DNA of 64,000 bases, from NCBI GenBank assembly GCA_043781375.1, contig JAYWBP010000038.1:40001-104000 (forward strand), given 5' to 3'. This DNA is from Novosphingobium sp. (GTDB lineage: Bacteria > Pseudomonadota > Alphaproteobacteria > Sphingomonadales > Sphingomonadaceae). Below, piece after piece: positions 2,725-28,541 of this stretch. A program made the position numbers and the translations under genes. How positions within the stretch are numbered: the first letter of the stretch is position 1; the number at the start of each line of letters is the position of its first letter. The notes below the pieces were generated by a model that was not told the origin of the DNA, did no database searches, and saw nothing but the letters and a program-made list of their open reading frames with translations.

Positions 2725-3429
2725 AGATCAGGCCAGCGATGACGGTTAATTACCGTTACATTGGTGCTGTCGGTCCAGCAGCACCGAGAAAGACGTAATG
2801 CTGTGATATCAATTGGTTATGATTCCCCATCGTTGTGGACACGATGGAACAATACATGGTTTGGACTTATGCCACTGAGGCCGGAACATAAGCGAATATG
2901 GCTGCGCCATCCTGTGACTGAATACCTACCGGCTTGCGCCGGTAGGTTCGTTTCGAGCGGCTGAAGCCATATTGACTGGCGCAGTGTGGGTCTGGAGGTA
3001 GCGCGTGATCACAATTGGCTATCCAGACGATATGGTGGCGATCAGGAAATGTCAGGTGGCGGAGGTTGCACGCTATCGTGCGAGTCTGTGGCTGAAGCTA
3101 GTATCCCACTAAAGTCAGAAGGGTTCCTCCCCAAAGAGGAGTCTAAAAATTAGCGGAGTAGGTCTTCGATCTTTGCCGGACAGTTACGAAAATACGCCTT
3201 GGTCAAGTGATCCAGGGTTAGAAGGCTGGAACCGGGAATGAGCGCCGCATCGGTGGCCGCAGCTTCGACTTTCTCTTCATCGAGCACCACTCAGAGCGTC
3301 GGTTGGCTGATCCTGATGAAATTCCCTTCACTGTCATCCGCCAGCGCGGCCACCAAGATAGACGCGAGGGCCGACTTTGTTCGAAATTTCCAGATCATGC
3401 CCGCTGGCTGGCAGCGCCCAGCTCACGAT

Positions 3430-3487
3430 GCCACGTTCGTCTGACAGGACCCTTAGTGGGGACCGCTCCCGTGGTCTGACAGAGCCC
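3430..3487 (-). mobile_element. Two IS6-like terminal repeat scars
   Basis: Reverse strand reads GGGCTCTGTCAGACCACGGG and GGGTCCTGTCAGACGAA, similar to the ends beside IS6 transposase remnants at 28585 and 52650. Confidence 0.45.
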
Positions 3488-4388: not shown

Positions 4389-4463
4389 CGTTATCCCTGC
4401 CGAAGAAATGCAACACGCGGTCAACAAAGGGAAGTGGGGATTTTGACCCCTGCGAACGACCGT

Positions 4464-5558
4464 TTATCGACCTTCTTCAGGGAATGTAAATTGATCATGC
4501 GCGCTGTCCAGTGTCGCGATGCGGACCACTTGTTTGCCCGTGTTATCGCGTTCGTATAGCCGGATCAAAGCTTCCGGCATGCGCTCCAGGCCCACGAGCA
4601 TGTCTTCCGCGACCGGCAACAAGCCCGCCCGGAACCACTTCGCCAATTCGGCTTCGGCATCGCCAAAGCGATCCGCATAGTCGTAGATGAAGAAACCCTC
4701 CATCCGTGCGTTTTGCTCACCGATGCGGTAGTAGTTCACAAGCCCGCTGATCGGTCCTTCAACATATTCCGAGATGCGACCGCACATCACTACGCGCCCC
4801 CGCAGCGCGATCTGGCCAACGCAGATATCAAGAAGTTTACCGCCAACGTTGTCGAAATAAATGTCAATTCCGTTCGGGCTTGCTTCACGCAACCGCTGTT
4901 CAAACTGCTCTTCGCGATAGTCGACCGCGATGTCGGCGCCAAGCACCTCAGTTACAAACTTACATTTCGCAGAACCGCCAGCGATTCCAATGACCCGGCA
5001 ACCAGCAATTTTTGCAAGCGGCACGACCACGGACCCCACACCTCCAGCCGCACCGGAAACAACGAGCGTCTCGCCTCGCTTTGGCCGTCCAATATCAAAC
5101 AGACCAAAATATGCGCTCAACCCCGTCATCCCAAGGGCGCCGACCGCAGTCGAAATAGGCGCCTCGCGCTGTTGCACCTCAAAAGTAAGCGATTCAGGAT
5201 ACATCGACAGGACAGCGTAATCTTGCCAGCCGACGGGACCGTGGACGATTGTGCCATCCGCTACCTTCGGTGAACGAGATTTGACAACCATGCCGACACC
5301 GCGCCCACGCATCGTTTCACCCAATTCAAGCCGCTTCGCGCGCCCTGCGTCGCGCAGCATATAATACCGCATGACCGGAGACGCCGAAAGATAGAGTGTG
5401 CGAACGAGAAACTCGTCAGGCCCAGGCTCGGGAACGGGCGCAGTTTCGAGGCGAAAGTCCGACGCCCGCACTGGTCGGCCTTCGGGTCTTTCGGCCAGCA
5501 CCCAGCGCCGGTTTATCCGGCCGTTCACGGCAAAATGCTCGCCGCCGCGTTCAGACAT
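4464..5558 (-). CDS. NADP-dependent alkenal/enone reductase (MDR, CurA/prostaglandin reductase-like)
   Basis: LAERPEG, VSGAAGGVGS, GIDIYFDNVGG, NTGKQVV motifs; start probably ATG 5558. Confidence 0.9.
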   Translation of the reverse strand: MSERGGEHFAVNGRINRRWVLAERPEGRPVRASDFRLETAPVPEPGPDEFLVRTLYLSASPVMRYYMLRDAGRAKRLELGETMRGRGVGMVVKSRSPKVADGTIVHGPVGWQDYAVLSMYPESLTFEVQQREAPISTAVGALGMTGLSAYFGLFDIGRPKRGETLVVSGAAGGVGSVVVPLAKIAGCRVIGIAGGSAKCKFVTEVLGADIAVDYREEQFEQRLREASPNGIDIYFDNVGGKLLDICVGQIALRGRVVMCGRISEYVEGPISGLVNYYRIGEQNARMEGFFIYDYADRFGDAEAELAKWFRAGLLPVAEDMLVGLERMPEALIRLYERDNTGKQVVRIATLDSAHDQFTFPEEGR

Positions 5559-5559
5559 G

Positions 5560-5901
5560 TCAGCGAACGTCAAACCCGAGCACTTGATTGCCTCGGACTG
5601 TGCAAGCTGCCGTTTTCGGTAAGCCAGCAGACGTGCCGTTTATGGCTATATCGAAGCCGTTTGGTGCAGCTGTCGAAACAGGGCTAGCTGTCAAAAATGC
5701 GTTAGGAATCTCGCGTTCGAATTTCGTTCGGCATAAATACACAGCGGTCTGCTGAGGCGAGAATGCACTTTGCGAGGGAGGAGGAAATATCAAACTGTGA
5801 AGGAATACCACAACGGCCGATCCTGCCGCGATGACGACAATCAAAAAGCTGGCCGCCTTGGCCCATTCTCCAAACCTCGTACCCGAACGCGCCGCATCCA
5901 T
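5560..5901 (-). CDS. Small membrane-anchored hypothetical protein
   Basis: 113 aa, one TM segment, two Cys; packed 1 bp from both neighbours. Confidence 0.6.
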   Translation of the reverse strand: MDAARSGTRFGEWAKAASFLIVVIAAGSAVVVFLHSLIFPPPSQSAFSPQQTAVYLCRTKFEREIPNAFLTASPVSTAAPNGFDIAINGTSAGLPKTAACTVRGNQVLGFDVR

Positions 5902-5902
5902 C

Positions 5903-8206
5903 TTAGTAACGGTAAGTTGCGGTAACGCCGAACTGACGATCGGTGCGCAGCCCCGTCAGAAAGGCGCGGGGGGTCTGGAACCCGTTAGCCGGAGTAAACA
6001 GCCGGAAGTCGCGGAAACGCAGAACGGAAAGCACGGCATGTTCGTTGGTGAGGTTTTTTGCAAACACCGTCAGCGAGAAGTGGTCATCTTCGATGCCCAA
6101 GCGAGCGTTGGCAACCAGCGACGATGGTGCATAGTTGAGATTGTCCACTTGCGCATAACGTTTGTCTACAACGCTTAGATCGCCGCGCAGGAATGCCCTG
6201 AATTGGCCCAAAACCGGCTCGGGCGTCTCATAGCCCGCGCGAATCGAAAAGGCGTACTTCGGGACCCTGGGGATCTGTTTGCCAGCGATTGATCCGTCGC
6301 CGACAATAAGAGGCGTCAAACGATCCTGCTCGGCATCGCTGCCTGCGTCTATTTTTGCGTCAATGTAAGTTAAGGTCAATCCGATGTTGAAGCCATCAGT
6401 CGGCACGATTTCCGCTGATATTTCAAAACCCTTGACGCTCGCACTGGGAAAATTGCGAACGTAACTGGTGGTGCGCTCGGGGACATTGTCGGTCAGCTGG
6501 ATATTTTTGATATCGTTATAATATGCGGCAATGTTGAAGCGAAGGCGCCGGTCCAGAAGCGTAGTTTTGGCGCCGACTTCGTACGACCATTGGGTTTCTT
6601 CTTTGAAGGTGCTTAAATCTATCGGGATATAGCGGCGCGCATCGGCCGCAGTGCCTCGCTGGATACCGCCCGGCTTATTGCCTCGGGCAACCACTCCGTA
6701 GAAAAGAATCTCGTCACTCGCCTGATAGTCCAAGGTAAAACGGGGATTGAAGCTGTTGTTCTTAAAACTGTAACTTGTGCCCGCAGCCTCGGGCGGTCGA
6801 AATGTCGGGAGCGCAATGTTCCCGCTGCCTGCCCCGACCACTGTAACTTTGGTTTCCTGAGCGTAGCGCGCCTCGGCAGTCGCGCGCAGCCGGTCAGAAA
6901 TATCGACCCCCAGTAGCCCGAAAACGGCTTTGTTGGTGGTCGTGTTATCTTCACGGCGAATCCCGGTAAAGCCGTCGTCAAGCGAGCCTTTGAACTGATA
7001 ATAATAGCCGCCGATAAGCGCGCGGACAGGCGAAGTCGCATTGGTGGCAAGGCGAAACTCCTGGCTAAAATCCTTCTCGCGATAACGCTGCTGGTTGACG
7101 TTTGAGGTCGTTACAGCCGTACCATCGCCATCGAACCCGTCGTGTCGCTTCTCATCTCCATAACCGGTCAGGGACGAGAACGTTACTGGACCGAGATCGT
7201 AACTTGCCGATAGGATCGCCTGAAATCTGTCGCGTTCGAGCCCGATGAAGTTGGAATTGACATCCCCAGGACGCTTGGCATCATAAGACAATGGGCCCAC
7301 GGGCGGCTGCACTGGGCCGCAAAAGGTGAGAAAACCGTTGGGATTGGAGCGCCTGCGAAATTCGATAGGAACAGTAATGTCCGTGCGATCGACCGCATAA
7401 CAGTTGTTGAACTCTGCGCCCTGAAGATAAAGTGCAAAAGGGCCGTCGCGGTCGGAAGCGAATGACGCCCGCCCGGAAGCCTGGAAGGATCCCAGATCGA
7501 GCGTCAGCGATCCGTTGACCGACTTCGTCCGCTCGTTTCCGATGCGACTGCCGTCGAACGCGTTCCGAAAATTATTGTCGAAATCATAATAGCGGCCCCC
7601 AACCGAGAAAAACACCTTGTCGGCAATTAGGTGGCCTCGAAGCGTCGCACTAACCTCTTTTTCGCCGAGCGTCGCCAGCGTGCCAATTAGCTGCGCGTGC
7701 AGATCGTTGGACGGTTTGGTGGTGACGTAGTTGATCGCACCAGCGTAAGTGTTGCGACCATATAAGGCAGATTGCGGACCCCTGATGATCTCGACCCGCG
7801 CAAGGTCAGTGAGACCAAACGAACTGACCGCGCCCGAAACATATACACCGTCCACAAAAAACGCGACGCCCGATTCAGTCCCGAAGTCCGAGGTGGAGAC
7901 CGCAGCGGAGCCCCGCATGGATGGGCGATCGTCGCGCCTGCCGAACGCTTTTTCGAATGATAGGCCCGGGGTCTGCCTGGCGATATCGTCGATATCCTTA
8001 AGGCCAAAGTCGGTAATGGTCCGCTGGGTAAACACTTCGACGGCAACCGGAGCTTTTTGGAGGCTCTCCTCCTGCTTTCGCGCCGTGACGATAATTTCTT
8101 CCACCCCTTTTACGCGGGTTTCCTCGGCGACAGCCACAACGGGCAAGGCAACGACAGTTGCGGCGGTGGCGATAAGCCAAACCCAACGATGCGCTCGATT
8201 GCTCAT
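5903..8206 (-). CDS. TonB-dependent receptor
   Basis: EEIIVTARK, VEIIRGPQSALYGR, C-terminal YRY; start ATG 8206 with GGGGGA RBS. Confidence 0.95.
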   Translation of the reverse strand: MSNRAHRWVWLIATAATVVALPVVAVAEETRVKGVEEIIVTARKQEESLQKAPVAVEVFTQRTITDFGLKDIDDIARQTPGLSFEKAFGRRDDRPSMRGSAAVSTSDFGTESGVAFFVDGVYVSGAVSSFGLTDLARVEIIRGPQSALYGRNTYAGAINYVTTKPSNDLHAQLIGTLATLGEKEVSATLRGHLIADKVFFSVGGRYYDFDNNFRNAFDGSRIGNERTKSVNGSLTLDLGSFQASGRASFASDRDGPFALYLQGAEFNNCYAVDRTDITVPIEFRRRSNPNGFLTFCGPVQPPVGPLSYDAKRPGDVNSNFIGLERDRFQAILSASYDLGPVTFSSLTGYGDEKRHDGFDGDGTAVTTSNVNQQRYREKDFSQEFRLATNATSPVRALIGGYYYQFKGSLDDGFTGIRREDNTTTNKAVFGLLGVDISDRLRATAEARYAQETKVTVVGAGSGNIALPTFRPPEAAGTSYSFKNNSFNPRFTLDYQASDEILFYGVVARGNKPGGIQRGTAADARRYIPIDLSTFKEETQWSYEVGAKTTLLDRRLRFNIAAYYNDIKNIQLTDNVPERTTSYVRNFPSASVKGFEISAEIVPTDGFNIGLTLTYIDAKIDAGSDAEQDRLTPLIVGDGSIAGKQIPRVPKYAFSIRAGYETPEPVLGQFRAFLRGDLSVVDKRYAQVDNLNYAPSSLVANARLGIEDDHFSLTVFAKNLTNEHAVLSVLRFRDFRLFTPANGFQTPRAFLTGLRTDRQFGVTATYRY

Positions 8207-10184: not shown

Positions 10185-10955
10185 ATGCGTTTTTCGGCAA
10201 CTCTGCTTCTCCTCGCAGGCCTCCTGTGCGCGCCGGTTCAAGCGCACGAGGCGCATCGCAAGATGACCGCACGCGATATCGTTGCGAAGGCTATCGAGCA
10301 GGCGGGGGGGGAAGCCTGGCGCGGTGCCAGGACTATGCACATGAAGGGCATTGCGACGCTCTATCGTGGTGGCACGTATGACAAGGTGACCGAGGCGACG
10401 CGCTATGAAATGTGGCGCGTCTATGCCGCAGCCAACAACAATGCGCATCAGGCCAATGGCAAATTTCGGCTCGATAGCGAAAAAGACGGCCATATCCTTT
10501 TCCAATCCGCTTTCGACGGGCAACAGGCGTATGACGCAAACGGGCCCATCGCCAACGCTGATGACGGCCGGCGCGACGAATCCGGTGCTTACGGATTTGG
10601 GATCATTCGCTTCGCCCTGAACGAAGGCTTCAAGCTTGAGCGATTAGCCGACGACCAGGTTGAAGGTAATCCCGCGCAATTCGTCAAGATTACCGACCCG
10701 ACGGGTGGGGTAACAATTTTCGGTGTCGACATGCGGGATTATTCGATCCGCACTGTCGAGTACGACACGTCGCGCGGCTGGCACCAGCGGATTTATTCGG
10801 ACTTCGAGACCAAAGCCAACCCTGGCTTTCGCCAGGCAACGCGGGTCAGGTTCTACTATAACGGCGTGAAGACTGTCGACGCCAAGTGGCAAACGTGGAC
10901 TGTGAATGAGCCAATATCGGATACGGTTTTCGAGTTGAAGAAGACTGCCAAGTGA
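10185..10955 (+). CDS. Exported hypothetical protein (possibly LolA-like beta fold)
   Basis: Signal peptide, GGAGA RBS, AIEQAGGEAW N-terminal motif, beta-rich; fold is inference. Confidence 0.7.
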   Translation: MRFSATLLLLAGLLCAPVQAHEAHRKMTARDIVAKAIEQAGGEAWRGARTMHMKGIATLYRGGTYDKVTEATRYEMWRVYAAANNNAHQANGKFRLDSEKDGHILFQSAFDGQQAYDANGPIANADDGRRDESGAYGFGIIRFALNEGFKLERLADDQVEGNPAQFVKITDPTGGVTIFGVDMRDYSIRTVEYDTSRGWHQRIYSDFETKANPGFRQATRVRFYYNGVKTVDAKWQTWTVNEPISDTVFELKKTAK

Positions 10956-11004
10956 GCACTTGCGTCGCGGCTGAAACACAGAAAAGACAAACCGAGCCCG
11001 GTTG

Positions 11005-11240
11005 ATACCAAGTCCCTTGGGCTCTGACTCAACACGGGGTTTTCCCAAGCGGCGATGATCTGATTCAACATCGCAAGCTGCAGGAGGTTTGCGCGGGCGG
11101 TGCTTTACGATGGCGGCGCTTTACGATGGCGGCGCGAGACACGAAGCGGCGCGATTCGGCGGCGTTGGCTTGCAGACGGTTCGGGACTGGGTTTTGCGGC
11201 TCAATGCCCAAGGCCCTGACGGCTTGCTGGACGGTAAGTG
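11005..11240 (+). mobile_element. IS630-family transposase remnant
   Basis: AALYDGGARHEAARFGGVGLQTVRDWVLRLNAQGPDGLLDGK matches the IS630 N-terminal HTH; truncated. Confidence 0.8.
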
Positions 11241-11329
11241 GCGCGATAATCATGGCCACCTTCAGGCAGAAACTTCACTCAACAAACTGTTATCCGGTAA
11301 AGTGCGGTCGCGGCGGCACGGCCGCGCTG

Positions 11330-11593
11330 GATGCCATTCGCAGCATAATCTCTGACCCGGCGAGGGGTAAATTCACCGCGCGAGTTGAAGCACATCCTGC
11401 CGTGAATGTTCCTCGTGAACCGGTCGCCCAATATTTCGTCGGCGCGTTCATGGCCGTTGTGGTCTGGTGGCTTGACGGAGGTGCAAAGCGCGCACCCGCT
11501 CAAATCGAAGAAACATTTTGGCGCCTGCGCTCGGGGGCTGGCGTGGGCCAAATGGTTCCGATCGACCTAACCCGGTTCCAAAGGGGCAGCTGA
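11330..11593 (+). pseudogene. TetR/AcrR regulator C-terminal fragment
   Basis: VPREPVAQYFVGAFMAVVVWWLDGG...QIEETFWRL with no N-terminal HTH; next to the IS630 remnant. Confidence 0.5.
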
Positions 11594-11697
11594 GTAGTAT
11601 AACCTTCACGCATAAACTCTTGATCACACGTCAGTTGTCTTTCTAACGTCATCGCCACATCCTCAACTCGACAAAATAGACCTTGGGGAGGTTCGTC

Positions 11698-14349
11698 GTG
11701 GAAAAAAATGCGTATCATAGGTGCCGTCGCACTCAGCTGTTGACCTCGTCGGCGCTCGCGCTTTTGACGATGGCGCCGTTGAGCGCGCACGCCCAGACGG
11801 TTCCACTCCCGCCGCAACCGGCCGTGGAGGCAGTAGACGCTTCGGCCATCGTCGTCACCGGCTCCAGATTTGGGCCACGCGTCGTCACCGATTCGCCGAC
11901 GCCGATCGACTCGATTTCTGGCGAGGAACTGACCAAGACCGGCGGCACTGATCTTCAGACCAAGCTCAAGGTCGTGGTTCCAAGCTTCAGCACACCGCGG
12001 CCGGTTGGCGCGGGGGCCAATGACTTTCTGACGCCGCCGACGCTTCGGGGGCTCTCGACTGGCCAGTTGCTGGTCCTTGTGAACGGCAAGCGACGCCACA
12101 CCAACGCGGAACTCAATGCCAACAACCAGATTGGCCGCGGCGACGTCGCCTATGACTTCACCGCGATTCCGGTCGCCGCGATCGGTCGGGTCGAGGTGCT
12201 GCGCGACGGTGCGGCCGCGCAATATGGCTCCGATGCCATCGCCGGCGTCATCAATCTCCAGCTTGACAGCAGTCTGGGGTTCGCCGCCCAAGCCCGCTAC
12301 GGCATGACGACGCATGGCGACGGCGAAGATACGCAGATATCGCTGTCTGAGGGATTCCGCGTTGGCGCCGACGGCTTTGTCCGGATTACCGGCACTTTCC
12401 AAGACCATAATACGACAAACCGCGCACTGTTCGATACCCGCCAGCAATATTTCGGAAACCCCGGCGGCGTGCTGGTCGCGCCATCGGGCAACTTCGGTTC
12501 GGGAACGGGACTGACGCCTTCCAATGGCACGCTTGACCCACGCGAGGCCACGTTCGACCGGAACACCTGGCTTTATGGCGAGCCGGCCTATCGAAACGCG
12601 GGGTTCTTTGTGAATTCTGAAGGGCCTTTGTCCGACAACATCACCGCCTATGCGTTCGGCGGTTATAACCAGCTGAACGGCGTGAGCTACAATTTCGTCC
12701 GCCGCGCGGGCCAGACCGAAAACGTGCGCGCGATCTACCCCAACGGCTTCCGACCGTTGCAGCTTTCGAGGCTGGAAAATGCCTCGATCGCCGTGGGCCT
12801 GAAGGGCGATGATCTCGGCGGATTCGCTTGGGATTTGTCGACCGAGTTCGGCACGTCGTTCGATCGGCTGCGCGTCGTCAATTCGCTCAACACCTCGTTT
12901 GGCGCGGCCAGCCCGAAAGAGTTCCTTCGCGGCGGCGCGCGGTTTCGCCAATGGACCTCGAACCTCGACGTGACGCGCGAAATCGACCTTGGGTCGGGCT
13001 CGCCGCTGAAAGTCGCGGTCGGGTTCGAATACCGCAGGGAAACCTATACGCTCACGGCCGGAGACGCGCCAAGCTATAGCAATGGGGGGGTACCGATCCT
13101 CGATGGGCCGAGCGCGGGCCAGCCGGCCCCCATTGGCGCCCAATCCGCCATCGGCGTATCACCATTGGATATTATCCCGGGATCGCGCCACAGCACCGCT
13201 GAATATGTCGAACTGGAAAAGAAGTTCGCGGACCGCCTGCTGATTTCTGCGGCCCTGCGCCACGAGAATTTTTCGGACTTCGGCTCGACGACCGATTACA
13301 GATTGGCGGGTCGCCTCGAGCTGTTCGGGGGGCTGGCGCTTCGCGGGTCTTTCGGCACCGGTTTTCGTGCTCCCGCGCTTGCGCAGTCCTTCTATGGCCA
13401 GACTGACTTTCTGTTCATCAGCGGTGTGCCGATTAGGGTCCGGATATTTTCGGTCAACGAACCCGTGGCGAAGCTTATCGGTGCTAGCCCGCTCAAGCCA
13501 GAAAAGGCTAAGAACGTCTCATTGGGTGTGATCTTCGACCGCGGGCCATTCGCGGTTACCGTCGATGCCTACCGGATCAGGCTCAAAGACCGGATCGTGA
13601 TTTCCTCCAATTTCCAAAGCCTCGCTTTGACGAACTACTTGGCTGGGCAAGGATTCCCTGGCATCGGCGCGGCGGCATTCCTGACTAATGCGGTCGATAC
13701 GACGACCAAGGGTCTCGATATTACCGCTCGCTACCGCCAGTCGATAGGCAGCGCGGGAACGCTGACGGCGACCTTCGCGGCGAACTTCAACGACACGAAG
13801 TTCGACCGGATAGTCGGTACACCTCCCCAGCTTGCCGCGCTCGGCTTCACCACCCCACTGGTCGATCTGACGCAGCAGATCCGGCTGAGCCAGAGCACCC
13901 CCAAGGACAAGGAAACGTTCAACCTCAACTGGACCGGGGGCAAATGGTCGGCGAACTTCACCGCCACGCGTTACGGCAAGGTCGCACAGGTGGTGCTTAC
14001 CAATGTCACGCCGGCGCGTGTCGCCGCGCTGCTCCTTCCCGGCTACGATGTCACGCTGGTGCCAAACCCGTCGAACGCGGTCAACTCGGACATCATACAG
14101 CGATTCCGGGCTGATGTCATCGCGGACTTTGATCTCTCCTATGCTGTGACCGATCACTTCACGCTTGGAGTTGGCGCGGCGAACTTATTCGACAAAACTC
14201 CCGAGGGACCGGTAGCCTCGACGCTCGCTAGCGTCGCGGCGGGAACCAACGGTGCCGACAACGCCGGGATTTTTCCCTCGGTCAACATCTCGCCGTACGG
14301 GATCAGCGGCCGGTTCCTTTATGTAAAAGGGACGTTCCGGTTCCGATGA
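11698..14349 (+). CDS. TonB-dependent receptor
   Basis: IVVTGSR, RVEVLRDGAAAQYGSDAIAGVIN plug motif; GTG start after GGGGAGG. Confidence 0.95.
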   Translation: MEKNAYHRCRRTQLLTSSALALLTMAPLSAHAQTVPLPPQPAVEAVDASAIVVTGSRFGPRVVTDSPTPIDSISGEELTKTGGTDLQTKLKVVVPSFSTPRPVGAGANDFLTPPTLRGLSTGQLLVLVNGKRRHTNAELNANNQIGRGDVAYDFTAIPVAAIGRVEVLRDGAAAQYGSDAIAGVINLQLDSSLGFAAQARYGMTTHGDGEDTQISLSEGFRVGADGFVRITGTFQDHNTTNRALFDTRQQYFGNPGGVLVAPSGNFGSGTGLTPSNGTLDPREATFDRNTWLYGEPAYRNAGFFVNSEGPLSDNITAYAFGGYNQLNGVSYNFVRRAGQTENVRAIYPNGFRPLQLSRLENASIAVGLKGDDLGGFAWDLSTEFGTSFDRLRVVNSLNTSFGAASPKEFLRGGARFRQWTSNLDVTREIDLGSGSPLKVAVGFEYRRETYTLTAGDAPSYSNGGVPILDGPSAGQPAPIGAQSAIGVSPLDIIPGSRHSTAEYVELEKKFADRLLISAALRHENFSDFGSTTDYRLAGRLELFGGLALRGSFGTGFRAPALAQSFYGQTDFLFISGVPIRVRIFSVNEPVAKLIGASPLKPEKAKNVSLGVIFDRGPFAVTVDAYRIRLKDRIVISSNFQSLALTNYLAGQGFPGIGAAAFLTNAVDTTTKGLDITARYRQSIGSAGTLTATFAANFNDTKFDRIVGTPPQLAALGFTTPLVDLTQQIRLSQSTPKDKETFNLNWTGGKWSANFTATRYGKVAQVVLTNVTPARVAALLLPGYDVTLVPNPSNAVNSDIIQRFRADVIADFDLSYAVTDHFTLGVGAANLFDKTPEGPVASTLASVAAGTNGADNAGIFPSVNISPYGISGRFLYVKGTFRFR

Positions 14350-19437: not shown

Positions 19438-20373
19438 ATGGCTACGCTGACGCTCACTGATAGACCCCCGATTGCCCCTAAGGCTGACTTCGGTTTCGAG
19501 ATCGATTTTGTTCGGGGGGTTGGTCCAGCGTCGCGTGTTTTTCTGGCGACCCACGACTTCATAAAGGCTTGCGAGAGGCTCGATGATGAGCTGGTGCTGT
19601 CGATTGATTCGAACATCGAGACGGTGCTTGTCCTTGAAGACATCGAAGCCGGGTCAATCAAAACGTGGCTTCGCAATGGCCTAACCGCTGTCGAAGACGA
19701 TGCCCTGAAAGCGCTCGATTGGAAGCCTCTCGTTGGCAAGTATCTGGTGCGCGCCAAGTATGCCGTCATCCGTTGGATCGATGATGACGCGACGCCGCGA
19801 AGCCTGACGGATTTGCGGCGCGAAATTCAGCAGATCGCGGCGGACACCGATGTGCGCCACCTGCCCGATTACACCGCCCCGTCGCCCGGAGCGTTAATTA
19901 CGGCGATAAAAGACTTCCAGGCAGTGAAGGGCCGGTTGCTCCCCGGCGACACGGCTACCCTGTTAACCGAAGACGGCAATATCCCTTTCGATTTGTCCGT
20001 GATTCTGAACATCGAAGACATTGAGGCACTTGCGGTCGCGCGCACCATCCCAAACCCGCCAGTAGAGATGATCCTGCCCGTCAAGAAGCCCGACTATCTT
20101 GGCGAAAGCATGTGGGAGCTTCGTCACGGCAAGCGGAACATAAGCGCTAGGATCGAACATCAAGATTGGCTTCGCAGGTTTCAGCAGCGCCAAGTGGACG
20201 TTAGGCCCGGCGATGCGTTGCGGTGCGTCGTGGCAATCGAAACTTTATATGGGTTCGACAACGAACTTCTGGCTGAGCGGTTCACCGTCACCGAAGTTCT
20301 CGAAGTGATGATGAATCGCTTTGTGATCCTTGATCTGCCCTTTGAGGAAGGTGCCAATGACAAACCTGCGTAA
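19438..20373 (+). CDS. Hypothetical protein, IS passenger
   Basis: Intact 311-aa ORF with GGGGGAA RBS lying wholly inside the IRs; no family recognised. Confidence 0.85.
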   Translation: MATLTLTDRPPIAPKADFGFEIDFVRGVGPASRVFLATHDFIKACERLDDELVLSIDSNIETVLVLEDIEAGSIKTWLRNGLTAVEDDALKALDWKPLVGKYLVRAKYAVIRWIDDDATPRSLTDLRREIQQIAADTDVRHLPDYTAPSPGALITAIKDFQAVKGRLLPGDTATLLTEDGNIPFDLSVILNIEDIEALAVARTIPNPPVEMILPVKKPDYLGESMWELRHGKRNISARIEHQDWLRRFQQRQVDVRPGDALRCVVAIETLYGFDNELLAERFTVTEVLEVMMNRFVILDLPFEEGANDKPA

Positions 20374-20527
20374 AGCCCGCGAAGAGGGCAAGCTGGACCA
20401 GTTCGCAGCCGACCGGGAAGCCGACGCTCCCGGCGACGAAGAGGCGTTTAACCGCGCTTTGCAGTCAATGTCCGGAACGTCGAAAGCAGTTCCGGAAGCA
20501 TTGTCTCCGCCCGATTGCGACGATTGA
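20357..20527 (+). CDS. Small acidic hypothetical protein inside the IS
   Basis: GAGGAAGG RBS; overlaps the passenger stop and, antisense, the transposase 3' end. Confidence 0.45.
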   Translation: MTNLRKAREEGKLDQFAADREADAPGDEEAFNRALQSMSGTSKAVPEALSPPDCDD

Positions 20528-21358
20528 AGCGATACTCAAATTCCTTGACGTAGCGGCCAAGGTATTTGGGGCTGACGCTGGTGTGGGTGCCGTTGATCGA
20601 GCATTTGAGGTGACGCCAGAAATTCTCGATCCCGTTGACTGAAACGACCTCTGCGAGCCGGTAATCGTAATAGGCATACTCTTCCGCGCCGTGGTTGACG
20701 GTCACATGGCGATAGCCCTCCGCGCCAAGGCTCTTGTAGCTGTTCAGTTCGTCGGTGTGGACGATCCCGCCAGTCTGGACGTTGGCGATCACGAAAGGCT
20801 GTAGCGTCGAGCGGCGCTGATTGGGACAACAGCGGTGATAACGTCGCCGCCGCGCTGTAGCGCCCCGACAACGACCGTCTTGGCGTGTGAGCCGCGATTG
20901 TGGGTTCCCTTCTTGACGCCGCCGAACAGGCTTTCGTCTATCTCGACGTTCGTGCCGGGTCCGCCGATGGGGCGTTCGCCGTCAACATCGGCCATGTGCT
21001 GGCGGATCAAGCCAGTCATGCGCCAAGCCGTCTTGTAGGTGACGCCAAGCTGGCGCTGCAATTCCTTGGCGCTGACACCGTGCCGCGTGGTGGTGAACAG
21101 GTGGATGCCATAGAACCAAAGCTGCAAAGGGGTGCGGGTCTGCTGGAACGGTGTTCCAACCGTGGGGTGCAAATGGTGGCCGCACCACTGGCAGGAATAG
21201 GCCCGCTCCGCCTTGATGCGGAACCATTTGGACGGGCGCTCGCATGACGGGCAAGTGAAGCCCTGCCCAAAGCGAACCTCAAACAGGTGCTGAAGGCAGG
21301 TTTCGTCGTCCGGAAACTTGCGGAAGAAGGCGGTGGTGGTGAAGGGCTTCGTGTCCAT
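20448..21358 (-). pseudogene. IS1595/ISXO2-like transposase, frameshifted
   Basis: CPSC/CQWC zinc ribbon, GVSAKELQRQLGVTYKTAWR HTH, DDE motifs VEIDES, IVHTDE, NGIENFW; one missing base near 20823-20825 splits it. Confidence 0.92.
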
Positions 21359-21810: not shown

Positions 21811-21840
21811 ATCTTTTGCGCCAACGCGTAGAAAATATTG

Positions 21841-21862
21841 AGGGCGGGGTAACTCCCGCCCT
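21841..21862 (+). terminator. Stem-loop after the precursor gene
   Basis: AGGGCGGG-GTAACT-CCCGCCCT, followed by only a weak U-tract. Confidence 0.65.
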
Positions 21863-21882
21863 TACTGTTAGGTAAGATACGC

Positions 21883-22890
21883 ATGTTATGTATGCGTCCT
21901 GAAACCCATGGTGGCCAGGAACATAACTTGCAGGAAATCCGACAGCACTCCCAGAAAAGCAGCGGGTTTGCAGACGCAGACCAAGACCATCTGGATATGG
22001 TCTGGCTTCTCGGGCAACCACATCTGCAGGATTTTCTTTCTTTCTGCGAAACCAAGGTGGTTGGTGGCGAGCAAATGGACCCGCGCGGGCTTGCCGAAGA
22101 ATGGCGCGCTGCGAACGATTTTTATGGTGAGCTGGAGAAAACTGAAGCGGGCATTGCCGATACCATTGACTGCCGACCTTTGGATGGCCGACTTGCCCGA
22201 ATGGCATCGGCGTTGGAAGCCAGTAACTGGTTCCGCACTTCATTCGACAATCTGCCCTACTCCATCGAACTCGTCGAACTGGACAAGCTGGTAGTTTCGC
22301 AAATTCAGGTCGAGTGCGGATATGCGCACGGAATTGCGGCCAGGTTGGGTAAATGTCCATCGCCAGCTGAGCTGTTTCGCTTTTGTTTGCCGCTTAAGCG
22401 CGAGCTTCCGCCTGTCGCAATCAAGCGCCTTGCCTCCAATCGCTACCAGTTTACATCGCCCTCCAGCGACTTTCGCCAGCACGACCCCATGTTGCTGCGC
22501 GGGGCGGACATTGCCGATCTCGATCTGCCTGGGGCAGCAGTTGCGTTGCTTGGCATTTCGGTGGGCTTTGGCTCGAATTTGATGAGCGGCATCCGCAGCG
22601 GCAATCGCGTGTTACTGCAGAACGGTTACCACCGGGCCTATGCACTGCGCAGTGCAGGCGTTACGCACGCTTGGTGCGTGATCGAGCTTGTGACCCGAAA
22701 GGACGAATTGCGTCTGACGGCCACCGAGGGTGTGTTGAGCGATCCGGAATTCTATTTTGCCGCAAAGCGACCGCCGATCCTGAGCGACTATTTCACTCCG
22801 CGGATCGCAAAGCGGCTGCGAGCAAAACGCATGGAATGTCTGGTCGAATTGGAGATCAAGGTCCGAACGTCTACCGTCACTTCGGTCTAG
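21883..22890 (+). CDS. Uncharacterised protein with ParB/sulfiredoxin-like motifs; candidate peptide maturase
   Basis: LVELDKLVVSQ and RVLLQNGYHRAYALRSAGVTHAWCVI (GxxRxxA); start uncertain. Confidence 0.75.
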   Translation: MLCMRPETHGGQEHNLQEIRQHSQKSSGFADADQDHLDMVWLLGQPHLQDFLSFCETKVVGGEQMDPRGLAEEWRAANDFYGELEKTEAGIADTIDCRPLDGRLARMASALEASNWFRTSFDNLPYSIELVELDKLVVSQIQVECGYAHGIAARLGKCPSPAELFRFCLPLKRELPPVAIKRLASNRYQFTSPSSDFRQHDPMLLRGADIADLDLPGAAVALLGISVGFGSNLMSGIRSGNRVLLQNGYHRAYALRSAGVTHAWCVIELVTRKDELRLTATEGVLSDPEFYFAAKRPPILSDYFTPRIAKRLRAKRMECLVELEIKVRTSTVTSV

Positions 22891-22900
22891 GGGGAACCGG

Positions 22901-23620
22901 TCACAGTTCGGATGATAGCCAACCTGTAACGCTGAATCGGCGCCTGGGAGCCGCACGTGTTACCATCGATACACTGTGATAACGCGGAATCGAAAACAGA
23001 TCGAGCGTGTTGAACTGGGGTATCAGTCCGGCGCAATCCACGCCGCCGAGTTCATGGAACAATAGTAATCCGCCCCATTCGAGGCGCCATTGCGGAGTAA
23101 GACCCAGGACAAATGCTACCTTGCGACCCGAGCTGGCAAGGTCGTCGTCATGGCCCGTCAGGAAATCACCCGCGCCATAAGCCGTTACCTGGCCGTCGGT
23201 GAAATCCGGCGAGCTCACGCCTGTCACCGCTTGCAGCGCGGCAAGCATCGGCTGGCTGCGCATCAGTGCTGAAATTTCCGCCAGAACAGGATCCTCGCAA
23301 ACCTCCCCAGAAACCGGGATTCGCAGCGCGGCATAACTGTATTGAAAGCCATTGCATGCCCTGGCGAAAATGCCTGGCTCCAATTCACTTCGCGAACGGG
23401 ATCCGGGCAGGTGCCATTCCCTCCACGGGACTTCGTGCGCCCCGGCATCATGATTTGCCAGCTGGACCCAGTATTCGTTGCCCTCCAGATAGTGGTAAAG
23501 TTCCGGCGCGCCGGCTGCGAAAACGTGTTGGATCCGCACCCGGCCGTCACGAAAAAATTGTTCGCGCAGGCTGACAAGGTCGAGCTCCGGATTGAGCGTG
23601 AGAAGACGAAGTTCAGTCAC
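22901..23620 (-). CDS. 2OG-Fe(II) oxygenase (prolyl/lysyl hydroxylase-like)
   Basis: FLTGHDD (HxD), WGGLLLF, YHSVS (distal His), RRFSVTGW (2OG-binding Arg). Confidence 0.9.
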   Translation of the reverse strand: MTELRLLTLNPELDLVSLREQFFRDGRVRIQHVFAAGAPELYHYLEGNEYWVQLANHDAGAHEVPWREWHLPGSRSRSELEPGIFARACNGFQYSYAALRIPVSGEVCEDPVLAEISALMRSQPMLAALQAVTGVSSPDFTDGQVTAYGAGDFLTGHDDDLASSGRKVAFVLGLTPQWRLEWGGLLLFHELGGVDCAGLIPQFNTLDLFSIPRYHSVSMVTRAAPRRRFSVTGWLSSEL

Positions 23621-25776
23621 AGGCGCAGCCTTGTTGCTGCCGGATATTGAAACTGGGCCAGCGGGCTCGGCCGCACTTTGTTTTCGATGCGCTCAACTTT
23701 TCCGCCTTCGACATGCAGAACAATATCAGCCAAATCGACCAGCGCCGGGCGGTGCGAGATGGCGACCCGCGTAATCGGCATCACGGCAATGGCTCGGGCT
23801 ATGATATCCTCCGTCTTCACATCCAGATTGGCAGTGCCTTCGTCGAGCAGAAGGACATCGGGATCGCGATAGAGCGCGCGCGCCAAAAGAATTCTCTGGC
23901 GTTGGCCCGACGAAAGTGCGGCGCCCATGTCGTTCACAAGGGTGTGATAGGACATCGGCATCTTGGCGATGTCGTCATGAACCCGCGCGAACCGAGCGGC
24001 GGCTTCGATGGCTTGGTTGTCAGGTTGAGGATGGAAGAAGCTGATATTGTCCGCGAGCGTGCCGGAGAGCAGGTAATCGTCCTGCAATACCGCCCCGATG
24101 CGCTGTCGCCATGACGCCATGGTTGATCCGTTCAGTGCCAGATCATCGATTTCGATTGTGCCCGATTGCGGGGTCAACAGTCCCAGCAGCAGCCTCATCA
24201 ATGTCGTCTTTCCAGCGCCGGAGGGGCCGACAATGGCGACCAGGCTTCCTGCGGGAATATCGAAATTCACCCGGTCCAGCACTGCTCCGCTGGCGGTGTC
24301 ATAGGCGAAGGTCAGGTTGCTTACCCGAATTGCCGGAGCGATGCGGCTGGGACGATGCTGGGGCGTGACGGTCAGCACTTCCTTTTCTTCGCCGACAATG
24401 TCTGACAACCGTTCGAGATGAACGCTCAGCAGCCGCCACTTCTGCCATTGTTGGACCAGCGAGGTGGCGCTCGTTGCAAAGCTGCCGCGATAGGACAGAA
24501 AGGCCAGCAAAAGTCCCACAGACAACTTTTGGGATATTACGGCAAGTGCACCGAAATAGACTGTGAGCAGGAAGGAAACACTGAAAATTGCATCCTCCGC
24601 AAATGCCAGCTTCACGCCGATCATCCGCGACTTGTAAGTAGCCGAAATGACCTCGGCATAGCGGTTGCGCCATCCGCTTTCGCGCATGGTTTCAAAGCTG
24701 TGCAATTTAATTGCCCGCATCGCGCGTAAGGATTCCATCTGATAGGATTCCTCCTGCGCACGAGCGACGATTTCTTCTTCGGTCCGCGCCCTCATGGCGG
24801 GATACATGACCTGTGCGAGCACCAGATAGGCTAGGGTGCAACAGAACACGATCGCCGTGAGCTGAACGCTGATCACCAGCATCACCAACAGTGTGGCGAC
24901 CAGCAATGAGGTGTCGATTAAGGAATCGACCAGTCCACGCGTCAGCAGTGTCTGAATAGGCTGGATCGAGCCGATGCGCGACAGGATGTCTCCCACGTGC
25001 CTGCGCTCAAAATAGGACATGGGTAATCGCAGCAAATGACGGACAATGTTTCCGCCAAGCTGGAAAGTCAGCGATTCACCAAGGCACAAAGTGACCCAGC
25101 TGCGCAGCATGCGCGTAACGGCCTGCAGCCCATAGATGAAGCCGAACCCGACAAGCAGCAAAGTGAGCAGGCTGGAATCACCCTGATTCACCCCCTCGTC
25201 GATCACCAATTGAATGAAGAAGGGTACGGCCAGTGCCGTGACCTGAACCAAGAGAGAAAGCAGAATTATCTGGCTCAACGCGGAACGGAAATTTGTCAGG
25301 TTGCTCCACAGGTCTGACAATCGTGTCCGCACTTTGGCGTTGATCGGCTTGAAGTCGGACGTGGGCGCAAGTTCGAGCGCTATGCCGGTGAAGTGTTGCC
25401 CCAGTTTGCCAAGCGCCATCCGTCTGCTACCGCGAGCTGGATCGAGGATCGTTGCAACACCGCGTTCGACTTTCTCCAGAATCACGAAATGGTTTAGGTC
25501 CCAGTGGAGGATCGCTGGAAGCTGGAGGCAGTCGAGTTCATCCACTTCGAGCCTCACCGCGCGCGCGGTGAGGTCGAGGTCGGAGGCAACGCCGATCAAC
25601 TGACGTAATGTCGTGCCCTTGATCGAAGAGGGAAAGCGCCGACGCAAACCAGCCAAGTCGAGCCTGTGACCATGGTAGCGTGCGACCATGGTTAGGGCAG
25701 CAAGCCCGCACTCAGCCGCCTCGGACTGCAGAACGCAGCGCATACGCTCGTTCCATGGCCATTCGAAGGATGCCAT
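23617..25776 (-). CDS. Peptidase C39-containing ABC transporter (CvaB/RaxB-like)
   Basis: QSEAAECGLA (catalytic Cys), LHWDLNHFVIL (His), GPSGAGKT, LSSGQRQR, LLLDE; start ATG 25776 overlaps the HlyD stop (TAATG). Confidence 0.96.
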   Translation of the reverse strand: MASFEWPWNERMRCVLQSEAAECGLAALTMVARYHGHRLDLAGLRRRFPSSIKGTTLRQLIGVASDLDLTARAVRLEVDELDCLQLPAILHWDLNHFVILEKVERGVATILDPARGSRRMALGKLGQHFTGIALELAPTSDFKPINAKVRTRLSDLWSNLTNFRSALSQIILLSLLVQVTALAVPFFIQLVIDEGVNQGDSSLLTLLLVGFGFIYGLQAVTRMLRSWVTLCLGESLTFQLGGNIVRHLLRLPMSYFERRHVGDILSRIGSIQPIQTLLTRGLVDSLIDTSLLVATLLVMLVISVQLTAIVFCCTLAYLVLAQVMYPAMRARTEEEIVARAQEESYQMESLRAMRAIKLHSFETMRESGWRNRYAEVISATYKSRMIGVKLAFAEDAIFSVSFLLTVYFGALAVISQKLSVGLLLAFLSYRGSFATSATSLVQQWQKWRLLSVHLERLSDIVGEEKEVLTVTPQHRPSRIAPAIRVSNLTFAYDTASGAVLDRVNFDIPAGSLVAIVGPSGAGKTTLMRLLLGLLTPQSGTIEIDDLALNGSTMASWRQRIGAVLQDDYLLSGTLADNISFFHPQPDNQAIEAAARFARVHDDIAKMPMSYHTLVNDMGAALSSGQRQRILLARALYRDPDVLLLDEGTANLDVKTEDIIARAIAVMPITRVAISHRPALVDLADIVLHVEGGKVERIENKVRPSPLAQFQYPAATRLRL

Positions 25777-27005
25777 TAGCTGAAAGTTTCCAAAATCGGC
25801 CCAAGCAATATCTGCCATAGGTTACGGCGCTCAAGCACCAGCTTGCCGGACAGCGTCATGCCTTGCCGCATCGAACCAATATCGACCTTTGTGCGCGGCG
25901 AGAACTTGACGATGTTGGCCCTGATGCGAAAAACCGGCTCATCGAACTTAAGACCCGGATCAACATTCGACGGTTCAGTTGGCACTTTGGCGATTTCGGT
26001 GACCAAGCCCTCGCTCGTACCGAACTTCTCATACGGGAAGGCATCGAATTGCAGGCGTACCTGCTGTCCCGCGCGCGCGTTGCCGACCGCCCGCGAAGGA
26101 GCATAGAGCCAAATTTCGAGCTTGCTGCCTGAAGGGATAACCGTGGCAGCTGCTCGCGCCGGGGTCGCCTGCTGGCCGACTTCCACGCCGATGTCGCCCA
26201 CGGTTCCTGCCACAGGGGCGGTGAGTACAATGTTCCCGGTGCGCGAAAGCTCAAACTGCTGCTGCGCCAGCACCGCCCGTTGAACGATCAAGACTGATTG
26301 GGTCCGCTGGGCTTCCAGCTGCCGCCGACTTTGGTCTGCTTCATTTGCGCGCAAAGCATTGCGCTGGACGATTACCTGCTCACCCAACCCCTCCAGTTCT
26401 GCCCGTCGGGTAAGCAATGCTGATCGGCTATCCTCGACCTGTCGCTGCGTTCCTGCCCCTTCTTTCGCCAGACGTTCGGCGCGAAGGGCTGCGGATTCTG
26501 CAAGTCGAATCTGGGCAGCAGCAATTGCGTGCTGTCGCTCCAGCGAGGCAATGGCCGCCATTAGCCCGCCATGTTGTTCGGCGAGCGCGGCGACTTCGGA
26601 ACTTGCCTGGTCGGCTGCCAGTCCGACTTGCCGCCCCAGCTCTGAATCCTGGTTGCCCATCTGATTGAGCTGTGGCGAAATTCCGCCCTGGCCTTGCGCG
26701 ATCGCCAACGTGACGAGCGCCTGTCCTGCCTCCACATGCTGTCCACTTCTGACGTGAATGGCACTCACTTCGGCAGCCGATCGCGGGTAGACTCGTGCGA
26801 TTCCGCCATCGTAAGCGACTATCCCGCGCACATCTGCGGTCATCGAAAAATGCCCAAACATCAACAACGCCAGGAGCAACAGTGCAGCCACCGCGACGAG
26901 ACGCGTATAGAGGCGCGACGACGGCGGAACGGCAGCGATCACCGTCCCGGTCAACCGATTACGGCTTGCCTCAATAACCTCGTTTCGGAAAAGTCGATCT
27001 GCCAT
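25776..27005 (-). CDS. HlyD-family membrane fusion protein (CvaA/RaxA-like)
   Basis: LFRNEV N-terminus, TM segment, coiled coil, LTAPVAGTV, FDAFPYEKFG. Confidence 0.95.
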   Translation of the reverse strand: MADRLFRNEVIEASRNRLTGTVIAAVPPSSRLYTRLVAVAALLLLALLMFGHFSMTADVRGIVAYDGGIARVYPRSAAEVSAIHVRSGQHVEAGQALVTLAIAQGQGGISPQLNQMGNQDSELGRQVGLAADQASSEVAALAEQHGGLMAAIASLERQHAIAAAQIRLAESAALRAERLAKEGAGTQRQVEDSRSALLTRRAELEGLGEQVIVQRNALRANEADQSRRQLEAQRTQSVLIVQRAVLAQQQFELSRTGNIVLTAPVAGTVGDIGVEVGQQATPARAAATVIPSGSKLEIWLYAPSRAVGNARAGQQVRLQFDAFPYEKFGTSEGLVTEIAKVPTEPSNVDPGLKFDEPVFRIRANIVKFSPRTKVDIGSMRQGMTLSGKLVLERRNLWQILLGPILETFS

Positions 27006-27155: not shown

Positions 27156-28541
27156 ATGCAATCAGTCCGCATAGTACCGATGATGGCATTTCTCCTGACG
27201 GTCGGTGCCTGTGCGCCGACCGCACAGGTTACTGGGCCGCCGTCGCTGGCCTCTGCTTCCTGGAGTGGCCAGGTCGAAGCCAGCGGACCGATTAAAGCTC
27301 CGCTTGCCGAATTGTTGAATGCGCCTGAATTGCAAGCGCTGACCGCTCTGTCGTTCAAGAATAACAGCGACATCCGGCTTGCGAGAGCGCGCGTTGAGCA
27401 ATCTCACGCGCTGCTGCGCGCTGCCCGTCAGGCAACCTTGCCGCAAATATCACTAGCCGTCGGCGCCAATAGGCGCTTCGAAAAGGCAGGAAGTAACGCG
27501 CTTGATTTCAGCGATGCGTTCGCGCGCCTGGATGTGGACATCGAGCTGGATATTTTCGGGCGGCTTAGCGCCGGCAAGCGTGGGGCAATCTCCCGGGCAC
27601 GCGCCACCGAACTGCAACGCGATGCTGTTGTTCTTGCCATCGAAACCGATGTTGCATCAGCATTTGTGCAGCGCGCCGCCATTGCCAGGCGGATTGCCAT
27701 TCTGGATAAGAATATTGATCGTGCGGTCGAACTCGAGCGGGTGATCCGCGTTCGTTTGGCACAAGGCGCCGCGACACGCGTGGATCAGGGATTGCAAACG
27801 ATCAGGCTGCTAAATCTGCGCGAAGAAGGATCGCGCATACGTCAGGCGCTGGATCAGACGCGAACGGCATTGGCGATTCTGACCGGAGCGGAAGCGCCGC
27901 AATTCTCTGTGGGCACGGCAAGCGTGGATACGATTGTCGTGCCTCAGCTTTATCCCGCCCCGCCGCGGGATTTGCTGGCAGCCCGCCCCGACGTGCGGGC
28001 ATCGGAAGCGCGGATCCAAGCGGCAAAGGGCGATGTGAGCCAGGCACGAGCCGCCTTCTACCCCCAGATTAGCCTCAATGCGCAGTCTATGCTCAATTCG
28101 GCAGCCTCCGGACCGCTGGGCACCAGCTTAAACCTGAGCTCGGCATTGCTGGTACCTATCTTCAGCCGCGAGCGATTGCTGAGCGCGTTCCAATACGCGT
28201 CAGCCGTGCAGCTCGAAGCCGTTGAACGGTTCCGCCAGACGATCCTAAATGCCCTCGCCGAAGTGGAGGATGCGCAAAGCGCACGACAGCGGTCAGCAGA
28301 ACGGGCGAAGCTGCTTGATGCCATAGTAGAAGAAGCGCACCTCACCGCTCGTCTCGCTAATGTTCAATATATCGAAGGTGAAGAAGATATACAAAATGTC
28401 CTGAATGCAGAAACCGCGATGAGTAATGCTGAGGACGCCCAAGTCATTAGTTGGCAAGAACGCTTGTTTGCACAAATTGCGCTATACCGTGCAATGGGCG
28501 GATATCAAAAGCAAACCCGTTTATCCCCAACACCCATCTAA
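27156..28541 (+). CDS. TolC/NodT outer membrane efflux lipoprotein
   Basis: Lipobox VGAC, ELDIFGR, LLAARPDVRA, ARAAFYPQI, LYRAMGGG. Confidence 0.93.
   Translation: MQSVRIVPMMAFLLTVGACAPTAQVTGPPSLASASWSGQVEASGPIKAPLAELLNAPELQALTALSFKNNSDIRLARARVEQSHALLRAARQATLPQISLAVGANRRFEKAGSNALDFSDAFARLDVDIELDIFGRLSAGKRGAISRARATELQRDAVVLAIETDVASAFVQRAAIARRIAILDKNIDRAVELERVIRVRLAQGAATRVDQGLQTIRLLNLREEGSRIRQALDQTRTALAILTGAEAPQFSVGTASVDTIVVPQLYPAPPRDLLAARPDVRASEARIQAAKGDVSQARAAFYPQISLNAQSMLNSAASGPLGTSLNLSSALLVPIFSRERLLSAFQYASAVQLEAVERFRQTILNALAEVEDAQSARQRSAERAKLLDAIVEEAHLTARLANVQYIEGEEDIQNVLNAETAMSNAEDAQVISWQERLFAQIALYRAMGGYQKQTRLSPTPI

Follow-up and report, generated by a model that had tools for sequence, protein, structure and literature searches.

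What does a protein with the predicted fold of ParB and sulfiredoxin (Srx) do beside the gene for a small Ser-rich peptide? This question is raised by one gene of the window, the 64,000-nucleotide stretch of DNA analyzed here. A first-pass annotation had proposed that its product is an NTP-dependent enzyme that tailors Ser/Thr (or Cys/Lys) in the core of the adjacent precursor. We analyzed the gene, its neighbors, the predicted structure of its product and its relatives in other genomes.

The gene and its cluster

The open reading frame comprises 335 codons (Table 1). The two motifs taken as ParB/Srx-like are both present: LVELDKLVVSQ was located at residues 130-140, and RVLLQNGYHRAYAL..AGVTHAWCVI at residues 242-267, where it contains G248-x-x-R251-x-x-A254. 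A beta-rich insertion of ~60 residues (about 170-232) lies between the two motifs, and the protein also has an N-terminal helical region. The true start is probably the TTG at 21928, because the Atlas record begins at residue 16, AGGA is positioned 7 nt upstream, and residues 1-28 have a pLDDT below 50.

Table 1. Features of the gene cluster in the window.
Feature	Position	Strand	Description
Precursor peptide, 59 aa	21631..21810	+	15-residue double-glycine-type leader and 44-residue core with SPTPP segment and terminal Cys
Two RNA hairpins in the precursor-enzyme spacer	21814..21869	+	-29.6 kcal/mol, z -4.0
ParB/Srx-fold protein gene (predicted fold)	21883..22890	+	N-terminal helices, split core ~126-168 and ~233-300, beta-rich insertion with SxSxDxR, NGxHR P-motif, RPP..D motif
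2OG-Fe(II) oxygenase, PF13661, optional cluster member	22901..23620	-	in 26/71 genome loci
Peptidase-containing ABC transporter (PCAT; C39 peptidase, ABC membrane and ATPase domains)	23617..25818	-	in 58/71 loci, one of them a generic ABC match
HlyD-family adaptor	25776..27005	-	Pfam/NCBIfam; in 55/71 loci
TolC/NodT-like outer-membrane channel	27156..28541	+	Pfam/NCBIfam; in 38/71 loci

No Pfam or NCBIfam family was matched by the protein at E<=1. Over 111 family members the best Pfam match had an E-value of 0.066, and neither an HTH nor a ParB family was detected. The reported lack of an HTH is in agreement with this result and with the model, in which residues 309-324 form strands. The lack of a nearby ParA was also confirmed: ParA-family matches in the genome occur only on other contigs, and the canonical parA-parB pair is on contig C127. 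A sequence search of the PDB with the single window protein gave 0 matches at E<=10, and PADLOC gave no match for 13 proteins. The relatives of the protein number 675 in the 90% collection and form 815 clusters at 50% identity, nearly all of them named hypothetical.

The precursor possesses L-12, E-8, L-7, V-4, G-2 and A-1. We take L-12/E-8/L-7/V-4/G-2/[GA]-1 to be the double-glycine leader consensus for PCAT export, and from this sequence the leader would be cleaved after Ala15. The leader pattern was found once in the 3.05-Mb genome, at this precursor. The core contains 13 Ser, 10 Lys, 9 Gly, 3 Cys and 2 Thr. Thus, the statement that the gene follows a Ser-rich precursor is correct for the gene order, with the precursor ending 72 nt upstream, and too narrow for the composition, which is Ser/Lys/Gly-rich. 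Hairpins in the spacer had z<-2 against mononucleotide shuffles in 86 of 119 related loci; they possibly act as an mRNA stabilizer or attenuator.

The oxygenase, ABC transporter and HlyD genes converge on the ParB/Srx gene from the opposite strand, and the TolC-like gene lies beyond them in divergent orientation. Just upstream of the precursor, positions 19438-21358 encode a LAPAL-motif protein (NF053583) and, after it, the two ORFs of a split IS1595-family transposase. The GC content of the cluster (56-58%; genome, 63.6%) does not set it apart from the left flank, since this flank has 57%.

Predicted fold and conserved residues

An AlphaFold2 model (pLDDT 89, pTM 0.83) was built on 111 sequences, for which 110 of the 120 listed relatives were combined with the window protein. 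Foldseek with this model gave nothing at E<=0.001 (E>=0.16), and PadC ranked first. In a wide structure search independent of Foldseek, ParB/Srx-type chains occupied the top 8 rows, from Srx (Z 5.8) to SbnI (Z 3.6), and the next row had a Z of 3.0. In a second structure comparison, rows 1-28 of 31 were ParB/Srx-type chains, 26 of them by title; Atu1540 and 1vk1, which are among these rows, are presumably chains of this type. The best match was human Srx (Z 6.2, rmsd 2.9, 97 residues aligned), with SerK at 4.8, SbnI and ParB at 4.7 and the next unrelated row at 2.2; all structural Z were below 8, the caution level of the tool, the ranking was uniform, and the ~60-residue insertion splits a core of ~100 residues. 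A fold search with the N-terminal 93 residues alone gave generic helical matches only (best Z 5.2), and the 50 rows listed included no RiPP recognition element.

Sequence profiles were consistent with the structural ranking in the GxxR region. With a family HMM, for which 101 of the 150 listed distant matches were aligned with the window protein, weak matches (E 0.22-1.5) to Spo0J, SerK and SbnI were obtained at the GxxR motif. The profile alignment to the genome's own ParB covered the GxxR region only (E 0.007). None of the known RiPP-kinase families (HPrK-like, LanM-like, PKc-like) was matched in Pfam/NCBIfam, and the core of the model goes to ParB/Srx. UniRef/JGI labels already name three relatives of the lasso branch (described below) ParB/Sulfiredoxin or ParB-like; thus, the fold call is not wholly new. 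The proposal of a ParB/Srx fold is supported by the AlphaFold2 model and by structure searches that rank Srx, SerK, SbnI and ParB first at modest Z, and we predict that the window protein has this nucleotide-binding fold.

Residue conservation was counted in 102 diverse sequences. The near-invariant residues were W74, P297 and D302 (102 each), R242 and R296 (101 each) and G248 (100). R251 (99), Q140 and N247 (98 each) and H250 (95) were also conserved, as were S192, D196, R198 and N232 of the insertion region (92 each). In both the double-glycine branch (40 proteins) and the lasso branch (68 proteins), which have ~30% mutual identity, at least 90% conservation was observed for Q140, S192, S194, D196, R198, N232, R242, N247, G248, H250, R251, R296, P297 and D302. 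Judged from these patterns, the conserved set looks like an active site formed by the P-motif together with the insertion.

The GxxR phosphate motif (Box II) is present and aligns to Spo0J and SerK. Asp69 in the DGHHR motif of SerK aligns to N247, which is Asn in 98/102 sequences and Asp in 2/102. Residue 249, which we take to be the position of the catalytic Cys of Srx, is Tyr in the window protein; it is Ser/Thr/Tyr/His in 94/102 sequences, and S, T, Y, H, M and L together account for 99/102. Q140 is, on our assumption, the probable counterpart of the catalytic Glu30 of SerK. The Box I/C-motif strand lies within the structurally matched ranges, with Gln at this position in 98/102 sequences, whereas in the Box I region the profile and single-sequence searches did not retrieve SerK or ParB and did not reproduce the mapping of Q140 to E30. 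As judged by the PDB titles among the structure matches, SerK was crystallized as E30A and E30Q mutants. SbnI reportedly requires Glu20 and Asp58 (PMC9641203). Thus, the known serine-kinase apparatus looks absent from the family. One member, at locus L058, retains DGHHR as in SerK. Because the motif residues differ and HTH and ParA are absent, the window protein falls outside SerK/SbnI, Srx and the partitioning ParB proteins. According to a survey of the fold, nucleotide preference is not predictable from sequence (PMC12704722).

Precursors linked to the family

The pooled loci were 71 genome loci, the best 80 of 507 metagenome loci, four plasmids and one viral locus. A precursor was found in 62 of the 71 genome loci. 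With the leader-only pattern, which itself partly fixes the leader residues E, V and G, it was detected in 120 of the 125 loci with at least 500 bp of upstream DNA, or 121 counting one found by eye; these counts are not independent events, because the loci are related and were retrieved by similarity to the query, and they do not extend to most of the distant branches (54 of 120 distant representatives, outside the two clades linked to RiPPs). No precursor was in view, by the leader pattern and by eye, at L077, L090, L117 and L160. In loci with shorter upstream DNA, a precursor was detected in 6 of 31. Rearrangement has not broken the link: Burkholderiales loci place the precursor in divergent orientation, downstream or on the opposite strand. 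In Novosphingobium aquae (L015, 3074-5920), an IS66-like element is inserted between the precursor and enzyme genes.

The cluster occurs in many proteobacteria, and its cultured, non-pathogenic carriers include Methylobacterium nodulans ORS 2060, Blastomonas sp. RAC04, Novosphingobium aquae and Sphingomonas parva. The distribution is sporadic and IS-flanked, with the family in 1 of 36 same-genus genomes. Searches of 301 Myxococcota-level genomes and of 321 genomes in the class of G151 each gave one carrier, the centre genome of the search itself. No member was found in phage records, and three distant queries gave no further plasmids.

Double-glycine precursors: core statistics were taken from 120 distinct cores obtained by the leader-only search with no composition filter, and four cores of a second class were set aside. 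Ser was present in 120/120 cores (minimum 2), and S+T was at least 4 in all; in Ser-poor cores, Thr takes the place of Ser in the same repeats. Lys was absent in 4/120 and Cys in 12/120. This composition ruled out Cys and Lys as obligatory acceptors, so that of the acceptors suggested earlier, Ser/Thr stands and the bracketed Cys/Lys falls away as a general requirement. In the alphaproteobacterial cores a terminal Cys was near-invariant. The median net charge of the 120 cores was +12. S/T was followed by K/R at a frequency of 0.50, compared with 0.265+-0.010 in shuffles, a statistic that is inflated by repeats and concerns low-complexity polar peptides that are Ser-rich anyway.

The second precursor class has the same leader and shares the exporter, and possesses an Asn/Gly core (NNG[FYW]GNG ... 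PGNS). It was observed at L013 (6981-7175, minus strand), L021 (4804-4986), L066 (4226-4474) and L159 (3516-3698), and adjoins a 2OG oxygenase in L013 and L159.

The 2OG oxygenase was found only with S-P-containing cores (27/27 vs 11/54, and 24/24 vs 6/53 after four loci were dropped), a co-occurrence that amounts to three independent pairs after phylogeny (p 0.25) and concerns a motif picked after viewing the data. It is a candidate prolyl hydroxylase for the S-P segment. FemAB-family genes were detected in 8 metagenome loci and on pMNOD02 of M. nodulans. At L113, L114, L121-L124, L130, L142 and L156, these aminoacyl-transferase genes are beside or inside the cluster, and three FemAB loci also have a neighbor of ~225 aa with no Pfam match. 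The FemAB-family enzymes are candidates for aminoacylation of core lysines. Genes for TPR-PhyH oxygenases adjoin the cluster at L058 (6987-9224), L120 and L129, and the L058 oxygenase carries an N-terminal APH phosphotransferase domain. Together, the optional neighbors (FemAB, TPR-PhyH oxygenases and 2OG oxygenase) point to a tailored scaffold.

Sensor kinase/response regulator pairs adjoin the cluster at L157, L158, L045 and L138 (Rhodobacterales and others), where the cores are rich in Arg, Ser and Asn and contain little or no Lys; a signaling use is possible at such loci. In a betaproteobacterial sub-clade, the family members P0192 and P0205 are fused to glycosyltransferase 25 and/or methyltransferase-like domains.

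Lasso precursors: in a sample of 401 genomes, two distant family members had no double-glycine precursor and were located beside lasso genes. Both are transcribed divergently from a lasso gene set that comprises the precursor, a B2 gene scoring above the cut-off of NF033537, a cyclase gene with E 3e-17 that stays below the cut-off of NF033561, and genes for an ABC exporter and a TonB receptor. In one bacterial family, the ParB/Srx gene was detected in 5/250 genomes and the lasso cyclase in 5/251; these were the same five genomes, in three genera, and the two genes were adjacent. These five clusters are close to one another and may go back to a single recruitment. Every one of the five lasso precursors has TTSP at its end, also in cases where the remaining tail differs; their cores have no Cys, and they are not polycationic. 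Named relatives in this branch are from Stenotrophomonas, Xanthomonas, Steroidobacter and Microbulbifer. A FastTree of 197 sequences separated a lasso-linked clade of 36 tips (support 0.995) from the double-glycine clade (106 tips, 0.998). The lasso recruitment is independent of the double-glycine recruitment, and Ser/Thr is the chemistry common to the two kinds of substrate. In the available text of PMC9266682, known lasso kinases act on the C-terminal Ser.

The lasso clusters at L165 (7788-17713 of G151:C138), L166 and L167-L169 encode a His-rich ring, with a core that begins A-H-N/S-H-G, and the TTSP tail. In L165 and L166 a palindrome between the precursor and the divergent ParB/Srx gene resembles what we take to be a Zur box. 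The product of L165-L169 is possibly a zinc-regulated metal-binding lasso peptide, and our literature search found no paper on a cluster with a His-rich ring and TTSP tail.

Standalone member: the L160 protein (36% identity) is encoded near an integrase on a prophage-like contig, where it stands by itself; neither precursor nor exporter accompanies it, and the conserved residues are retained. In this region (2886-7654) its gene lies between the integrase and another ORF, which is reminiscent of AbiU2/HEPN proteins (no PADLOC match). A ParB-methyltransferase-like gene was also seen in this phage, at 10548-11822.

Proposed function and comparison with known systems

Because of the precursor pairing in 121 of 125 loci and the lasso-peptide branch besides, the family probably consists of RiPP tailoring enzymes. 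The conserved linkage in two RiPP classes supports the tailoring role that had been suggested for the adjacent precursor, as far as sequence comparison goes, and we consider a covalent tailoring role of some kind likely. The more specific reading, that the protein would bind a nucleotide and phosphorylate Ser/Thr of the precursor core before leader removal and export, stands in our judgment at about an even chance; a kinase role is plausible. The ParB/Srx-fold enzymes that do not bind DNA (Srx, SerK and SbnI; PMC12704722) carry out phosphoryl transfer. Since the SerK-type acids appear to be absent, this reading would need a catalytic set other than that of SerK. Furthermore, the gene with an APH kinase domain next door in L058 means that the ParB/Srx fold may accompany, rather than be, the kinase.

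The proposed sequence of events is as follows. NTP or NDP would bind at N247-G248-x-H250-R251, and the role of SerK's catalytic acids may fall to a conserved Asp that is not part of the classical motif (D196 of SxSxDxR, or D302). The leader-bearing precursor would be the substrate, and Ser/Thr next to basic residues the putative phosphate acceptors. The optional 2OG oxygenase and FemAB-type aminoacyl transferase may add further modifications. The PCAT would then cut the leader after Ala15 and export the core via HlyD-TolC. We speculate that phosphates on many of the 15 Ser/Thr could roughly cancel the 11 Lys/Arg, and that this cancellation might mask a nucleic-acid-binding polycation inside the cell. 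Outside, the product might be a zwitterionic, metal- or mineral-binding, or signaling peptide.

Apart from the kinase reading, NTP-dependent tailoring of Ser/Thr with no phosphate in the end product, by dehydration via a transient phosphate (Dha/Dhb, Cys/Lys cross-links) or by nucleotide transfer, would draw on the same precursor linkage. It would suit the amides where SerK has acids, the Cys in 108/120 cores with its near-invariant terminal position in the alphaproteobacterial set, and the Ser/Thr/Tyr/His found in 94/102 sequences at the putative position of the Srx Cys. However, no cyclase or lyase recurs among the neighbors, 12 cores have no Cys and 4 no Lys, and the lasso cores lack Cys; we regard such chemistry as unlikely. 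A non-covalent function is less probable still: a nucleotide-switched chaperone or immunity factor would shield the polycationic precursor from nucleic acids and pass it to the exporter. The median net charge of the cores, the absence of a recurrent dedicated immunity gene among the neighbors, the behavior of canonical ParB proteins as nucleotide switches and the apparent loss of the SerK catalytic acids are all consistent with it. Against it, the lasso precursors are not polycationic, yet their partner has the same conserved residues, and the proteins of the double-glycine branch are only mildly acidic (median net -5).

Two readings that separate the protein from the peptide were also weighed. 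The structural matches to SerK and SbnI would fit a free-serine kinase, and the ParB/SbnI-like protein EdeB belongs to a biosynthetic cluster (PMC9641203), which would fit a ParB-like cluster regulator as reported for EdeB. Either is very unlikely here: no recurrent neighbor would use O-phosphoserine, the motif Asp is missing, no HTH family was found in 111 members, and the model's C-terminal part consists of strands. If the protein were a standalone effector in conflict or defence that consumes nucleotides and shares mobile islands with peptide clusters, this would explain the solitary L160 member in its prophage-like contig and the sporadic, IS-flanked distribution. Among named Atlas clusters, ParB-CE and PFIN are two of the nearest (0.75-0.76, lead level only), and ToxB is a toxin with a ParB/Srx fold in the available part of a preprint (bioRxiv 10.64898/2026.05.05.722872). 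This origin is nevertheless highly improbable, as the precursor is linked in 121/125 loci through rearrangements, a second peptide class is involved, and PADLOC gave no match.

Returning to the kinase reading, we tentatively propose a bolder form of it, to which we give somewhat less than an even chance. The family would be the first ParB/Srx-fold polypeptide kinase, with an amide-for-acid site completed by the inserted domain, and would have been recruited twice: for polyphosphorylating silaffin-/protamine-like Ser/Lys(Arg) peptides in Alpha- and Betaproteobacteria, a new RiPP class, and for phosphorylating a lasso peptide, possibly under zinc control, at its TTSP tail. For standalone members, host proteins may be the substrates.

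The window thus holds a conserved and apparently undescribed system of RiPP type, in which the probable tailoring enzyme has a predicted fold for which this role is not known. The literature search, which placed most subscription journals outside its scope, found neither a ParB/Srx-fold RiPP enzyme nor these precursors, in agreement with the earlier remark that no such role is known to be described for the fold. In its main text, a 2025 survey of the ParB/Srx fold mentions no RiPP, peptide or bacteriocin, and its supplementary datasets could list members (PMC12704722); the available text of PMC12639078 does not mention ParB. The unannotated family (815 clusters at 50% identity) and its undescribed precursor class are invisible to Pfam/NCBIfam-based mining. 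An enzyme that modifies many sites of highly varied cores could be a useful tool, whatever its chemistry.

SerK of Thermococcus, SbnI of Staphylococcus and the proposed SerBK/DUF1015 possess, like the window family, a ParB/Srx core with no HTH, GxHR and an extra domain, and Ser is a candidate acceptor in common. In SerK/SbnI the substrate is free serine and the motif is DGxHR with a catalytic Glu, whereas the window family has NGxHR and probably Gln. In addition, the beta insertion is a feature of the window family, as is its tie to ribosomal precursors. Sulfiredoxin, the closest structural match (Z 6.2), transfers a phosphoryl group onto a protein side chain. It acts on the cysteine sulfinate of peroxiredoxin via its own motif Cys, in contrast to the window family with Tyr/Ser/Thr/His there, and the window protein is three times its size.

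RaxX/RaxSTAB of Xanthomonas and other double-glycine peptides combine a precursor and one small tailoring enzyme with a PCAT, an adaptor and TolC. As in RaxX/RaxSTAB-type systems, some loci of the window family have an adjacent two-component pair, whereas RaxST is a tyrosine sulfotransferase, and its enzyme and cores are unrelated to those of the window cluster. Diatom silaffins and protamine/SR-type peptides possess Ser/Lys/Gly or Ser/Arg repeats with phosphorylated serines; they are eukaryotic and depend on other kinases, and their likeness to the cores is an analogy of composition only.

Phosphorylated RiPPs are described, in the available texts, for paeninodin/pseudomycoidin (PadeK, HPrK-like), LPP (LppK), phospeptin (EmbM, LanM-like) and cyanobactin DolG (protein-kinase-like) (PMC9266682, PMC13381572, PMC9259500, PMC12639078). 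These texts share with our proposal the phosphorylation of precursor Ser/Thr as a tailoring step, lasso tails and linear products included. They differ in that other kinase folds are used, and none of the systems has the precursor family or the exporter layout of the window. If the kinase reading is true, ParB/Srx would be a fifth fold for RiPP peptide phosphorylation, beside the HPrK-like, LanM-like, protein-kinase-like and APH-like enzymes, and the range of the fold, with DNA clamps, free serine and peroxiredoxin, would come to include ribosomal peptides.
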